A stretch of 64,000 bases of DNA. Source: Escherichia coli (GTDB taxonomy: Bacteria > Pseudomonadota > Gammaproteobacteria > Enterobacterales > Enterobacteriaceae). Each line of letters starts with the position of its first letter. The first letter of the stretch is position 1. This document shows positions 28,808-46,622 of the stretch, one piece after another. The translations under genes were made by a program, and so were the position numbers. The stretch lies in NCBI RefSeq assembly GCF_044647545.1, contig NZ_CP172818.1; one strand, written 5' to 3'. Under the pieces are notes generated by a model. The model saw only the letters and a program-made list of their open reading frames with translations. It was not told the origin of the DNA and searched no databases.

Positions 28808-28915
28808 ACTACGAATTGATATGTTCCTTGCTGTAACGTCGCTTCCACGCAGCTGGCGTTAAGCCGGTGTGTTTGCGAAAAATCTGCCGGAAATAGCCGA
28901 CGTCATTAAACCGTA
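28808..28915 (-). pseudogene. AraC/XylS-family regulator C-terminal remnant (HTH fragment, frame interrupted upstream)
   Basis: Minus-strand translation ...LAVVGLFQAIRFNDVGYFRQIFRKHTGLTPAAWKRRYSKEHINS* fits the AraC C-terminal HTH pattern; an in-frame TGA lies just upstream. Confidence 0.35.
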
Positions 28916-29123
28916 TTGCCTGGAACAGGCCGACAACGGCGAGTCACTGCATAACCTGTGGCTGCCCGCCGATGCGCCATTTACGACATTTGAAGGTAAT
29001 GGATTGTTCCGCCATAAGATCTTAATCCAGGCACCGGGTTACCGGTATGAACAGAGCAATCCAGAGCAGCAACCGCTGTGGCATTACGACAGTGCGCCAG
29101 CCGCACCGACATCCACCGGTGAA

Positions 29124-32100: not shown

Positions 32101-32326
32101 TTACTCGGCAGAAGAGGTCTTGATGTCGGCGAGCTGTTTCTCCAGCCCGGCAATACGCTGTTGTAGTTGCACAACGCCGGAGGAGTCATGGTTTTGCATT
32201 CCCCATCCCCGCTCCGGGCGGTAAAGCGTGGCCCAAATCCACAAAATGGCCAGATAACATGCAGCGTAAAAAGACTCACCCAACCAGCAACATGAATGGC
32301 GTCGGCATGAGGATGATTACGTTTTG
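32101..32326 (-). pseudogene. yiaW: yiaW (DUF3302 small membrane protein), C-terminal part, separated from its 5' part by IS1
   Basis: Translation ...[46 protein letters not shown] matches the YibI paralog; reading frame runs into the IS1 left end. Confidence 0.8.
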
Positions 32327-32351
32327 GTGATGCTGCCAACTTACTGATTTA

Positions 32352-32657
32352 GTGTATGATGGTGTTTTTGAGGTGCTCCAGTGGCTTCTGTTTCTATCAG
32401 CTGTCCCTCCTGTTCAGCTACTTGACGGGGTGGTGCGTAACGGCAAAAGCACCGCCGGACATCAGCGTTATCTCTGCTCTCACTGCCGTAAAACATGGCA
32501 ACTGCAGTTCACTTACACCGCTTCTCAACCCGGTACGCACCAGAAAATCATTGATATGGCCATGAATGGCGTTGGATGCCGGGCAACCGCCCGCATTATG
32601 GGCGTTGGCCTCAACGCGATTTTACGTCACTTAAAAAACTCAGGCCGCAGTCGGTAA
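32352..32657 (+). CDS. insA: IS1 InsA-like ORF (body in frame with ...[23 protein letters not shown]...; N-terminus out of frame with the canonical GTG start at 32381)
   Basis: ORF-track translation; canonical-looking start GTG 32381 [14 protein letters not shown] reaches TGA at 32423. Confidence 0.7.
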
Positions 32658-33079
32658 CCTCGCGCATACAGCCGGGCAGTGACGTCATCGTCTGCGCGGA
32701 AATGGACGAACAGTGGGGCTATGTCGGGGCTAAATCGCGCCAGCGCTGGCTGTTTTACGCGTATGACAGGCTCCGGAAGACGGTTGTTGCGCACGTATTC
32801 GGTGAACGCACTATGGCGACGCTGGGGCGTCTTATGAGCCTGCTGTCACCCTTTGACGTGGTGATATGGATGACGGATGGCTGGCCGCTGTATGAATCCC
32901 GCCTGAAGGGAAAGCTGCACGTAATCAGCAAGCGATATACGCAGCGAATTGAGCGGCATAACCTGAATCTGAGGCAGCACCTGGCACGGCTGGGACGGAA
33001 GTCGCTGTCGTTCTCAAAATCGGTGGAGCTGCATGACAAAGTCATCGGGCATTATCTGAACATAAAACACTATCAATAA
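32576..33079 (+). CDS. insB: IS1 InsB transposase frame
   Basis: 167-aa ORF ...[21 protein letters not shown]...[48 protein letters not shown]. Confidence 0.85.
32631..32641 (+). promoter_or_regulatory. IS1 programmed -1 ribosomal frameshift motif (A6C) joining insA and insB
   Basis: ttaaaaaactc at the insA/insB junction. Confidence 0.6.
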
Positions 33080-33094
33080 GTTGGAGTCATTACC

Positions 33095-33204
33095 TTACGT
33101 TTTTTAGCAATCAGGTAGGGAATATCATGTAAAATAATAATCCCATAGAATATCACCAGAAATACAAAAATAAGCACTCCCAGTGCAAAATAGTCCAGGA
33201 ACAT
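33095..33204 (-). pseudogene. yiaW: yiaW 5' part ([37 protein letters not shown]...), separated from the 3' part by IS1
   Basis: Reverse complement of 33104-33204 encodes the N-terminus homologous to YibI; joining the two parts minus one TSD copy restores a 109-codon frame. Confidence 0.8.
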
Positions 33205-33530: not shown

Positions 33531-33638
33531 ACGCCCGGCAATACACGCCGGGCAGCTTCTGCCAGAAACGCACTTCTGTTGGCGTAGTCTGGGTTATTGC
33601 GCACGTAGGTTTAAAACGTAAATTGTAACAACGTGCGC

Positions 33639-40970: not shown

Positions 40971-43900
40971 ATGAGCGGAAAACCGGCGGCGCGTCAGGGC
41001 GACATGACGCAGTATGGCGGTAGCATTGTCCAGGGTTCAGCCGGGGTACGTATTGGTGCCCCCACCGGCGTGGCCTGTTCGGTGTGCCCCGGCGGAGTAA
41101 CGTCCGGCCATCCGGTCAATCCGCTGCTCGGTGCAAAGGTCCTTCCCGGCGAGACAGACATCGCCCTGCCCGGCCCGCTGCCGTTCATTCTCTCCCGCAC
41201 CTACAGCAGTTACCGGACAAAAACGCCCGCGCCGGTGGGGAGCCTCGGCCCCGGCTGGAAAATGCCTGCGGATATCCGCTTACAGCTGCGCGATAACACA
41301 CTGATACTCAGTGATAACGGCGGCAGAAGCCTGTATTTTGAGCACCTGTTTCCCGGTGAGGACGGTTACAGCCGCAGCGAGTCACTCTGGCTGGTGCGCG
41401 GCGGCGTGGCGAAACTGGATGAAGGTCACCGGCTGGCCGCACTCTGGCAGGCGCTGCCGGAAGAGCTTCGCCTGAGTCCGCATCGTTATCTGGCGACGAA
41501 CAGTCCACAGGGGCCGTGGTGGGTACTCGGCTGGTGTGAGCGGGTGCCGGAGGCGGATGAGGTGCTGCCTGCGCCGCTGCCGCCGTACCGGGTACTGACC
41601 GGGCTGGTGGACCGCTTCGGGCGCACACAGACGTTCCACCGTGAGGCTGGCGGCGAATTCAGCGGCGAAATCACCGGCGTGACGGATGGCGCAGGCCGTC
41701 ACTTCCGGCTGGTACTGACCACGCAGGCGCTGCGGGCAGAAGAGGCCCGGCAGAAGGCCATTTCCGGCGGGACGGAACCGTCCGCTTTTCCTGATACCCT
41801 GCCGGACTACACGGAATATGGCCGGGACAACGGTATCCGTCTGTCTGCCGTGTGGCTGACACACGACCCTGAATACCCGGAGAATTTACCTGCCGCGCCG
41901 CTGGTGCGCTATGGCTGGACGCCACGCGGCGAACTGGCGGTGGTGTATGACCGCAGCAATACACAGGTGCGCAGCTTTACTTACGATGATAAATACCGGG
42001 GCCGGATGGTGGCGCACCGTCACACGGGCCGGCCGGAAATCCGTTACCGTTACGACAGTGACGGGCGGGTGACAGAACAGCTAAACCCGGCAGGCTTAAG
42101 CTACACGTATCAGTATGAGAAAGACCGCATCACCATCACCGACAGCCTGGACCGCCGTGAAGTCCTGCATACCGCAGGCGAAGGCGGCCTGAAGCGGGTG
42201 GTGAAAAAGGAACACGCGGACGGCAGCGTCACGCAGAGTCAGTTTGACGCGGTGGGCAGGCTTAAGACACAGACGGATGCCGCAGGCCGGACAACAGAAT
42301 ACAGCCCGGATGTGGTGACGGGCCTCATCACGCGCATCACCACGCCGGATGGCAGGGCATCGGCGTTTTACTATAACCACCACAGCCAGTTAACGTCAGC
42401 CACCGGGCCTGACGGGCTGGAAATACGCCGGGAATATGATGAATCCGGCCGTCTGATTCAGGAAACCGCCCCTGACGGCGATATCACCCGCTACCGTTAT
42501 GATAATCCACACAGTGACTTCCCCTGCGCAACGGAAGATGCCACCGGCAGCCGGAAAACCATGACGTGGAGCCGTTACGGTCAGTTGCTGAGCTTCACCG
42601 ACTGTTCCGGCTACCAGACCCGTTATGACCATGACCGCTTCGGGCAGATGACGGCGGTGCACCGCGAGGAAGGCCTGAGCCAGTGCCGCGCATACGACAG
42701 CCGTGGACAGTTAATTGCCGTGAAAGACACGCAGGGCCATGAAACGCGGTATGAATACAACATCGCCGGTGACCTGACCGCCGTCATTGCCCCGGACGGC
42801 AGCAGAAACGGGACACAGTACGATGCGTGGGGAAAGGCCATCCGTACCACGCAGGGCGGGCTGACCCGCAGTATGGAATACGATGCTGCAGGACGGGTCA
42901 TCCGCCTGACAAACGAAAACGGCAGCCACACCACCTTCCGTTACGATGTACTCGACCGGCTGATACAGGAAACCGGCTTTGACGGCCGCACACAGCGTTA
43001 CCACCACGACCTGACCGGCAAACTTATCCGCAGCGAGGATGAGGGGCTGGTCACCCACTGGCACTATGACGAAGCAGACCGCATCACGCAGCGAACGGTG
43101 AATGGTGAAACCGCAGAACAGTGGCGGTACGACGAACGCGGCTGGCTGACACAAATCAGCCATCTCAGCGAAGGGCACCGGGTGACGGTGCATTACGGGT
43201 ATGATGAGAAAGGCCGCCTGACCGGTGAGCGCCAGACGGTGCATCATCCGCAGACGGAAGCACTGCTCTGGCAGCATGAGACCAGACATGCGTACAACGC
43301 GCAGGGGCTGGCGAACCGCTGTATACCGGACAACCTGCCCGCCGTGGAATGGCTGACTTATGGCAGTGGTTACCTGGCAGGGATGAAACTCGGCGACACA
43401 CCGCTGGTGGAGTACACCCGCGACCGCCTGCACCGGGAAACGCTGCGCAGCTTCGGCCGTTATGAACTCACCACCGCTTATACCCCTGCCGGGCAGTTAC
43501 AGAGCCAGCACCTGAACAGCCTGCAGTATGACCGCGATTACACCTGGAACGACAACGGCGAACTCATTCGCATCAGCAGCCCGCGCCAGACCCGGAGTTA
43601 CAGCTACAGCGACTCCGGCAGGCTGACCGGCGTTCACACCACCGCAGCGAACCTGGATATCCGCATCCCGTATGCCACGGACCCGGCAGGTAACCGCCTG
43701 CCCGACCCGGAGCTGCACCCGGACAGCACCCTCAGCATGTGGCCGGATAACCGTATCGCCCGTGACGCGCACTATCTTTACCGGTATGACCGTCACGGCA
43801 GGCTGACGGAGAAAACCGACCTCATCCCGGAAGGGGTTATCCGCACGGATGATGAGCGGACTCACCGGTACCATTACGACAGCCGGCACCGGCTGGTGCA

Positions 43901-44750
43901 CTACACGCGGACACAATATGCAGAGCCGCTGGTCGAAAGTCGCTATCTTTACGACCCGCTGGGCCGCAGGGTGGCAAAACGGGTGTGGCGGCGTGAACGG
44001 GACCTGACGGGCTGGATGTCGCTGTCACGGAAACCGGAAGTGACCTGGTACGGCTGGGACGGCGACCGCCTGACCACGATACAGAACGACAGAACCCGCA
44101 TCCAGACGGTTTATCAGCCGGGGAGCTTCACACCACTCATCAGGGTCGAAACCGCCACCGGTGAGCAGGCGAAAACGCAGCGCCGCAGCCTGGCGGATGC
44201 GCTTCAGCAGTCCGGCGGCGAAGACGGTGGCAGTGTGGTGTTCCCGCCGGTGCTGGTGCAGATGCTCGACCGGCTGGAAAGTGAAATCCTTACTGACCGG
44301 GTGAGTGAGGAAAGCCGCCGCTGGCTGGCATCGTGCGGCCTGACGGTGGCGCAGATGCAAAACCAGATGGACCCGGTGTACACGCCGGCGCGAAAAATCC
44401 ACCTGTACCACTGCGACCATCGCGGCCTGCCGCTGGCGCTTGTCAGCACGGAAGGGGCAACAGAATGGTGCGCAGAATACGATGAGTGGGGCAACCTGCT
44501 GAATGAAGAGAACCCGCACCAGCTGCAACAGCTTATCCGCCTGCCGGGTCAGCAGTATGATGAGGAGTCCGGCCTGTATTACAACCGCCACCGCTATTAT
44601 GACCCGCTGCAGGGGCGGTATATCACTCAGGATCCGATTGGGCTGAAGGGGGGATGGAATTTTTATCAGTATCCGTTGAATCCGATATCAGACATCGAGC
44701 CCCCTGGGTTTATCTATGTGGGAGGATGCAAAATCGGGGGCATGTACTAA
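40971..44750 (+). CDS. rhsA: Rhs-family polymorphic toxin core protein: N-terminal PAAR motif, YD repeats, Rhs core; very short 12-residue tail after an EPPGF motif
   Basis: 1259-aa ORF; N-terminus [26 protein letters not shown] (PAAR); many YD/YxYD repeats; ends ...[39 protein letters not shown]. Confidence 0.92.
44238..44686 (+). repeat. Rhs core 3'-end repeat, copy A (inside rhsA)
   Basis: About 450 bp near-identical to 46623-47069 at a constant offset of about 2384 bp. Confidence 0.9.
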
Positions 44751-45754
44751 TGGTCTTTGCGGCATATCAGCTGTGATGAGAGGTGCATAAGTTTTTCATA
44801 GACCGCATATGACGCCTTAATAACAATAAAATTAAAATATATTTTCAATAAAATCAATAGCCAAATAAAATAAATAAATAAATTTTCCCTGCACCTAGAA
44901 CGTGGAGAAAGTTAGTACATACTATGGATGCAATAGCATTGACATAATGGTGGGACGAATATTTTCACTTCGACTAATGTGGTAGATATCAGATTTGGAC
45001 GAAATATTTTAAGCAAAGATGAAAATAATTAAAATAAACAACGAATAAATACCACCCCATTAATAAACAATAGATAACCACGGGAAGGAAATAACAAACG
45101 GAAAAGGATCCGATGCCAGAGTTATCGGTAATATTAAAAAAAAAAATATAAATAAAATAAATAAATTTTATTTAGCACTCCCATTTTTTTTACACAACAT
45201 GGCCATAATAATAATTTTAAAATAATAATGACGGGAAAGAGAGAAAGAAGGTAAACTGTAAAAGGATTACAAAAATTTGGTCTACAAATACAGGTTATAG
45301 TAAAAAAATATTTTTTAGAATTTATTGTATCTTTTTTTTTTTACAACAACACAGGTCGCAGTGTAATTACAGAGATATTAAAATAATGCTCAAATTTATG
45401 AAGCAGTGAGGCAGAAGAATATACATATAAACGCTTCATTAAAACAAGTGGGTAATTTGGTTAAAAATAAACTAACATTGAATTACAATATATGTTAAAA
45501 TCAGGCAACCAAAAAGAAAAAATATAAAATATGATTAACAACAAGTCTTGTTGAAGGCACCATTCACTCAGACCAAATTGCTGGTGGGGTTTTTATTAGA
45601 AAATAGGCAAAAATGATGGGGTAATTCTGAATTTTGGCCACGGAAAATAAGTATGTAAGGATAATCAAACATCGTGTGCGCTGATGGCAGAGTAGGTGGA
45701 GGACTCCAGACAGTCAAACGATAAAAAAAGATAGCCTTTATGGAGGCTCCTGCA
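44751..45754. other. Extremely AT-rich block without ORFs of 60 aa or more between rhsA and yibA; contains A11 (45136-45146) and T11 (45332-45342) homopolymers
   Basis: Visibly low GC and low complexity; ORF track shows no ORF on either strand. Confidence 0.8.
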
Positions 45755-46597
45755 ATGTCAAATACATACCAGAAAAGAAAGGCAAGTAAAGAGTATGGTT
45801 TATATAATCAATGTAAGAAACTAAATGATGATGAATTATTTCGCTTACTTGATGATCACAATTCCTTGAAAAGGATTTCATCTGCCAGAGTATTACAGTT
45901 AAGAGGTGGGCAAGACGCTGTTAGATTGGTAATTGAGTTCTGCTCTGATAAAAATTATATCCGTAGAGATATCGGAGCATTTATACTCGGGCAAATAAAA
46001 ATTTGCAAAAAATGCGAAGATAATGTGTTTAATATTTTGAACAATATGGCATTGAATGATAAGAGCGCTTGCGTTCGAGCTACGGCAATCGAGTCAACGG
46101 CTCAGCGATGCAAGAAAAACCCAATTTATTCACCTAAAATAGTAGAACAATCTCAAATTACTGCTTTTGATAAATCGACTAATGTCAGACGTGCTACAGC
46201 ATTTGCTATTTCTGTTATCAATGATAAAGCAACAATTCCACTATTGATTAATCTGTTAAAAGATCCAAATGGAGATGTCAGAAACTGGGCCGCATTTGCA
46301 ATAAATATCAATAAATATGATAATAGTGATATTAGGGATTGTTTTGTGGAGATGCTTCAGGATAAAAATGAGGAAGTCCGTATTGAAGCAATAATCGGAC
46401 TTTCCTACAGAAAAGATAAAAGGGTTTTATCTGTTTTATGCGATGAGTTAAAAAAAAATACTGTTTATGATGATATCATTGAAGCTGCGGGTGAATTAGG
46501 TGATAAAACGCTACTTCCTGTTTTAGATACTATGTTGTACAAGTTTGATGACAATGAAATTATAACTTCCGCTATTGATAAGCTGAAGCGTTCATAG
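45755..46597 (+). CDS. yibA: HEAT-repeat protein YibA
   Basis: ORF 45740..46597; start set at MSNTYQKRKASKEYGLYNQ giving 280 aa; repeated helical-repeat pattern. Confidence 0.85.
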   Translation: MSNTYQKRKASKEYGLYNQCKKLNDDELFRLLDDHNSLKRISSARVLQLRGGQDAVRLVIEFCSDKNYIRRDIGAFILGQIKICKKCEDNVFNILNNMALNDKSACVRATAIESTAQRCKKNPIYSPKIVEQSQITAFDKSTNVRRATAFAISVINDKATIPLLINLLKDPNGDVRNWAAFAININKYDNSDIRDCFVEMLQDKNEEVRIEAIIGLSYRKDKRVLSVLCDELKKNTVYDDIIEAAGELGDKTLLPVLDTMLYKFDDNEIITSAIDKLKRS

Positions 46598-46622
46598 CGT
46601 GAGTTGCCTATGCACAGTGGGG

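Follow-up and report, generated by a model that had tools for sequence, protein, structure and literature searches.

InsA, the first product of the insertion sequence IS1, is a repressor and an inhibitor of transposition. It shares its N-terminus with the transposase InsAB′, which arises by a −1 slip at the A6C motif during translation of insA, in roughly 1–2% of translation events as judged from reporter measurements (PMC12903888). The N-terminus, composed of a zinc finger and an HTH, is needed to bind the IS ends, according to PMC12903888, which cites Ohta et al. 2004. The IS1 transposase is mainly cis-acting, and other copies are mobilised efficiently only on its overproduction; in chromosomal assays, mobilisation of a distant copy in trans is ~25-fold below self-mobilisation even with a constitutive source of InsAB′ (PMC12903888, PMC12428005). 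Non-consensus IS1 copies were moved only with overproduced InsAB′; those of K-12 (IS1B, IS1C, IS1D and IS1F) are resident elements with intact ends that do not move by themselves and need overproduced InsAB′ in trans (PMC12428005, PMC12903888).

The window analysed here, a 64-kb stretch of an Escherichia coli genome, carries a single IS1 copy, as determined by a left-end search. Judged from its sequence, this copy is best described as a putatively non-autonomous, frameshift-inactivated IS1A-type element in a decaying yiaW locus. The lesion is one extra T near the start of insA, and we place the probability that it is a genuine single-base insertion, abolishing both InsA and InsAB′ from this copy, at about 80%.

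The IS1 element and the yiaW locus

Inserted within yiaW (encoding a DUF3302 protein), just upstream of yiaV, is an element of 769 bp that shares 99.6% identity over its full length with many copies of the IS1A family. The gene context was established by comparison with E. coli IAI39 and RM9088. The element, its ends and the two parts of the interrupted gene are as follows.

32326..33094, + strand: IS1 element (IS1A-like), 769 bp, the canonical 768 bp plus one T
32326..32348, + strand: left inverted repeat (IRL), exact match to GGTGATGCTGCCAACTTACTGAT, with no differences from K-12 IS1A
33072..33094, + strand: right inverted repeat (IRR); the differences from K-12 IS1A are all internal
32317..32325, unstranded: left copy of the 9-bp target-site duplication TTACGTTTT, read directly and by empty-site comparison
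33095..33103, unstranded: right copy of the 9-bp target-site duplication TTACGTTTT, read directly and by empty-site comparison
33095..33204, − strand: yiaW 5′ fragment (DUF3302), interrupted by IS1; ORF MFLDYFALGV...IAKKR running into the IS1 end
32101..32325, − strand: yiaW 3′ fragment, with a 1-bp deletion and an in-frame 3-bp insertion of its own; in the alignment, two reading frames are needed for the YiaW sequence

Differences from K-12 IS1A fall at IS positions 97, 143, 263, 291 and 445, and both ends are identical in the alignment. The empty site in IAI39 and RM9088 contains one copy of TTACGTTTT, that of IAI39 aligns to both IS1 flanks with a 9-bp overlap, and once IS1 is removed the window is colinear with the uninterrupted locus of the two strains. 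The direct repeat, the ends and the 9-bp duplication in yiaW are what a simple IS1 insertion typically leaves. Members of the IS1 family measure about 768 bp, end in imperfect inverted repeats of roughly 23 bp and duplicate 8–9 bp of their target. In each structural feature examined (length, inverted repeats, target duplication, insA/A6C/insB′ layout and Pfam domains) the element belongs to this family; the only family trait that it lacks among those tested is an insA frame running unbroken from its GTG.

The insertion presumably inactivates yiaW. IS1 insertions are polar, and an effect of this one on yiaV is likely on that basis. The 5′ fragment of yiaW remains colinear with the gene in IAI39 and RM9088, and the 3′ remnant has two changes: a frame-shifting deletion of A5 to A4 at 32243–32246, located 180 bp away from the extra T, and, at about 32175–32177, an insertion of 3 bp that keeps the frame. 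A 34-mer carrying the A5-to-A4 deletion matched none of the 5,426 complete E. coli genomes. YiaV and SelB of the window are common alleles that also occur in unrelated contexts, with an intact yiaW or a different locus structure.

Other E. coli strains have acquired IS1 in the 5′ part of yiaW independently and repeatedly, at different positions and in the same orientation. The IS1 copies adjoining yiaW in those strains (L001, 1849–2616; L021, 1501–2268; L022, 1501–2268; and L023) are all 768 bp long with the canonical ACTGAC. Several strains with IS1 at yiaW have lost the region from yiaW back to yiaM or yiaL, losses that look like IS1-mediated adjacent deletion. A right-hand IS1/yiaW junction in common with several complete genomes was considered and set aside: the insertion points differ, and deletions beside them frequently reach into the yia operon, so that these are independent events. 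Between yiaW and aldB, a 12-bp insertion (33550–33561) and a 2-bp deletion (33663) relative to IAI39 and RM9088 are found in repeat-like (REP-type) sequence.

Across the whole window, the nearest complete E. coli genomes (IAI39, CE10, SMS-3-5 and RM9088) are only about 98–99% identical, with gene-by-gene identity forming a mosaic from 94.5% to 100%. A Shigella origin, with which many IS1 copies would be expected, is disfavoured: having one IS in 64 kb and 44 intact genes, the window resembles ordinary E. coli. Three blocks of IAI39 are missing from the window: an AraC-regulator/MFS/GH127 block between araD (sgbE) and yiaT (window 28912–29102), a Fic gene between aldB and yiaY (about 35410), and a DUF3251 gene with a YadA-like adhesin between yibL and lldP (57388–57484). 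An Rhs element at 40971–50284 comprises a main ORF of 1259 aa with an unusual C-terminal end, orphan Rhs C-terminal fragments downstream of it (46639–47148 and 49285–49758), a HEAT-repeat-like ORF (45740–46597) and AT-rich filler; the exact 1259-aa protein has no record in a collection of 15 billion proteins.

The interrupted insA frame

The coding features of the element, read from its left end, are these.

32381..32425, + strand: truncated insA frame, GTG start, 14 codons and then TGA (from the translation; the start corresponds to insA1 of K-12)
32422..32423, + strand: TT instead of a single T (1-bp insertion, T duplicated), the cause of the frameshift; alignment column 97
32424..32657, + strand: rest of insA (codons 15–91 plus TAA), in the +1 frame relative to the start codon; ORF 32352..32657 contains DGVVRNGK...NSGRSR
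32633..32639, + strand: A6C motif (AAAAAAC), the normal programmed −1 frameshift site for InsAB′, intact; read directly (cacttaaaaaactcagg), role as in PMC12903888
32576..33079, + strand: insB′ frame (DDE catalytic domain), open; 167-aa ORF matching Pfam DDE_Tnp_IS1 over its full length (E = 2.3e-78)

The canonical start of insA is the GTG at 32381, which is IS position 56; insA1 (b0022) of K-12 IS1A begins at this offset too. From it, the frame is ended after codon 14 by an in-frame TGA at 32423–32425, and the normal insA stop, TAA at 32655–57, is reached in the +1 frame. When MAFFT is used to align it to K-12 IS1A and to two IS1A-like copies (from the E. coli E308 chromosome and plasmid p1506-1), the window copy reads ACTTGAC against ACTGAC in 3/3 references. 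The difference is one inserted base, in column 97, and it is ambiguous whether the first or the second T at 32422/32423 is the addition. When one T is removed in silico, a 768-bp element encoding the full 91-aa InsA is obtained. Since the region matches IS1 at 99.6% over 769 bp, this pattern did not arise by chance. The first-pass annotation of the locus had read the frame from GTG 32381 as stopping at the TGA at 32423 after 14 residues, which is accurate to the base; its placing of the remainder of InsA in the +1 frame is borne out from 32424 to the TAA, and the single extra T near 32422 that it proposed as the cause is confirmed by the alignment and by the restoration of InsA on its deletion.

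With the T removed, InsA matches both of its Pfam domains over their full length, Zn_ribbon_InsA (1.3e-21) and HTH_Tnp_IS1 (5.8e-30). The ORF in the +1 frame retains a complete HTH_Tnp_IS1 and only positions 15–35 of the 35 in Zn_ribbon_InsA. Absent from products begun in the new frame are Cys8 and Cys11, the zinc ribbon's first CxxC pair.

The expected consequences follow the layout of the element. Duplication of the T of ACT in insA codon 15, turning ACTGAC into ACTTGAC in an otherwise ordinary IS1A-type element, would halt ribosomes from the normal GTG after 14 residues, so that no full InsA would be made. No transposase would be expected either, because InsAB′ is made only by ribosomes that are already translating insA and slip by −1 at the A6C motif, and these would stop after codon 14. 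The claim of the earlier annotation that this copy can make neither normal InsA nor InsAB′ is thus supported by the shift of insA after codon 14, from which the loss of protein would follow. With its inverted repeats, A6C motif and DDE frame intact, the element would persist as a non-autonomous substrate, movable only by the transposase of another IS1. Since neither end is damaged, rescue in trans should in principle be possible, and it is expected to be rare; to suppose that the copy may be immobile unless complemented in trans, as had been proposed, is reasonable.

Rarity and origin of the extra T

Distribution of the variant was examined with a 34-base query centred on it; as megablast requires an exact 28-base word, only T-carrying copies can match. 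It matched none of 5,426 complete E. coli genomes and none of 72,556 plasmids, and the exact pattern also had 0 matches in GTDB representative genomes and metagenome contigs. As a positive control, the canonical 33-mer was found at no fewer than 56,463 places in 4,278 genomes. Given 0 variant matches against at least 56,463 canonical places, the extra T looks like a derived state private to the window copy, and not an isoform; the question that had accompanied the annotation, whether reference IS1 isoforms carry the same base, is answered in that none of those searched do. Patterns for the IS1/yiaW junction and for the variants had 0 matches in GTDB representatives, metagenome contigs and complete E. 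coli genomes, and exact-protein look-ups for plausible frameshifted InsA products, the InsB ORF, the YiaW fragments and the Rhs ORF returned no records. By these searches the extra-T allele is unreplicated, a second independent assembly of the same insertion having been found in none of the collections searched.

This lack of replication is one of several points in favour of a sequencing, assembly or polishing error, in which case the true element would be an intact 768-bp IS1. Repeats are hard to polish, their reads mapping to several places, and they are often closed with low-coverage finishing reads. The private homopolymer indel in yiaW (A5 to A4), only 180 bp away, would fit a locally poor stretch beside a repeat, and the window's three indels with an effect on a reading frame are clustered no more than about 250 bp from the left IS1 junction. 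Set against this is the cleanness of the remainder of the window: all 44 of the CDSs common to the window and IAI39 (45,150 bp) are full length and free of frame-disrupting indels, and a 23-kb block aligns with one gap, so that random indel error is rare. The rule of three puts the rate of indel errors under about 7e-5 per base, and for the 769-bp element this means an expectation of fewer than about 0.05 errors. Reads mis-mapped from other IS1 copies would pull the consensus toward the canonical sequence and would not create a novel base, TT is no long homopolymer, and the same copy has two transition substitutions, unlike typical indel-type errors. The only other frameshifting indel found is the private one in the yiaW remnant, so that the frameshifts are confined to DNA that was already inactivated, as real decay predicts. 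Two frameshifts within about 1.1 kb of inactivated DNA, together with two substitutions in the IS copy, would fit the relaxed selection predicted for an old dead locus. We therefore regard an error as unlikely and favour a genuine insertion.

A genuine insertion need not silence the element if the new stop were recoded. The +1 site with which ACT-TGA-C can be compared is that of prfB (RF2), CTT-TGA-C, where an in-frame TGA-C is combined with a CTT slippery codon and an SD-like AGGGGG three nt upstream (PMC12421855). A pause at the weak UGA-C, followed either by a +1 shift on ACU_U in the manner of prfB or by reinitiation at GTG 32430/32433, would yield some InsA and InsAB′ or a truncated form. 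In the window copy TGA is followed by C (TGAC, 32423–32426), the weak-termination context of prfB (PMC12421855), slippage by +1 at ACU-U would give back precisely the wild-type InsA, with GAC as the first +1-frame codon as in prfB, and beyond the stop GTG occurs twice in frame, 5 and 8 nt downstream. The resemblance is superficial. In place of the CTT_T slippery site just before the stop is ACT_T, which would re-pair poorly in the +1 frame. On CUU, tRNA-Thr is expected to re-pair poorly from codon–anticodon pairing. The SD-like AGGGGG three nt upstream of the slippery codon is absent, as is any SD-like purine run, the upstream sequence being pyrimidine-rich (TCCCTCCTGTTCAGCT; upstream 20 nt, TGTCCCTCCTGTTCAGCTAC). 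Nor is the interrupted frame conserved in homologues: the arrangement was found in 0 other IS1 copies searched, against at least 56,463 uninterrupted places. Products reinitiated at Val17/18 would be without C8 and C11 of the zinc ribbon, and InsAB′ would require two rare events in series.

A programmed +1 ribosomal frameshift site is accordingly rejected on motif and conservation, the change in the window being a frameshift mutation, and functional recoding of any kind is highly improbable here. Equally improbable is the weaker proposal that ACU-UGA-C might permit low +1 slippage or termination–reinitiation, leaving the copy a hypomorph that needs a +1 and then a −1 shift for transposase; if true, ribosomal recoding at a weak stop would here be rescuing a mutation in part, in a naturally occurring case.

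Relation to other IS1 copies

Apart from the extra T, the element differs from the commonest IS1A-like variant (transposase WP_103215986.1) by two transitions only. It has 1 insertion and 2 substitutions relative to the E308 and p1506 copies, and 1 insertion and 4 substitutions relative to K-12 IS1A. The two transitions are listed below.

32468, + strand: C to T, synonymous (Arg codon), uncommon, found at 144 places in 132 genomes (alignment)
32616, + strand: A to G, giving T79A in InsA (HTH region, LNAILRHL) and H14R in the insB frame, rare (alignment)

A 34-mer carrying the A-to-G change at 32616 had 0 matches in 5,426 genomes. Intact InsA with T79A was found in three Logan contigs only, in a plasmid-like context and with the canonical ACTGAC. 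As the IS1 background of these contigs is otherwise different from that of the window copy, T79A appears from sequence comparison to have arisen more than once. In one of them (SRR13998246, 3038 bp, plasmid-like), the intact T79A IS1 adjoins genes for a HigB-like toxin and an HTH antitoxin.

The first-pass annotation had also taken the copy for a diverged isoform on the strength of several substitutions. A diverged isoform is ruled out by the 99.6% identity to the commonest variant, with 2 substitutions. Of the examples given, YAYDRLRK is the common form, the Ser of K-12 being the minority state, and LNAILRHL does mark a rare change, T79A.

With the IS1A family (K-12 IS1A and IS1E, and the WP_103215986.1 variant) the window copy shares its length to within 1 bp, the inverted repeats, the 9-bp target duplication, the insA/insB′ layout, the A6C −1 frameshift motif and the DDE domain; it departs from the family in the extra T in insA codon 15, T79A and one synonymous change. 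The non-consensus copies of K-12, namely IS1B, IS1C, IS1D and IS1F, differ from it in that their frames stay open and the changes they bear are missense, such as L81F in the HTH, whereas the window copy has a frameshift that would remove the proteins; its T79A also lies nearby in the HTH. The copy can also be compared with IS pseudogenes, frameshifted transposase genes that genome annotation flags routinely, which likewise combine a single-base indel in a transposase gene with a fixed old insertion and a decaying host gene. Nothing of substance separates the window copy from these, its allele being absent from the collections searched.

Transposase genes broken by a frameshift turn up routinely, and the window copy, a dead or crippled element of the ordinary kind, fits known biology and shows no new mechanism. 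For method, the case illustrates how a variant private to one copy of a multicopy repeat can be checked: a short query that forces the search word across the variant screens it against tens of thousands of copies. The insA/insAB′ of the window copy is to be annotated as a frameshifted pseudogene, and the element should be counted as non-autonomous in estimates of the active IS1 load of the genome. Beyond annotation the finding has little importance; the private T, T79A and the yiaW lesions together provide a lineage marker for the strain.
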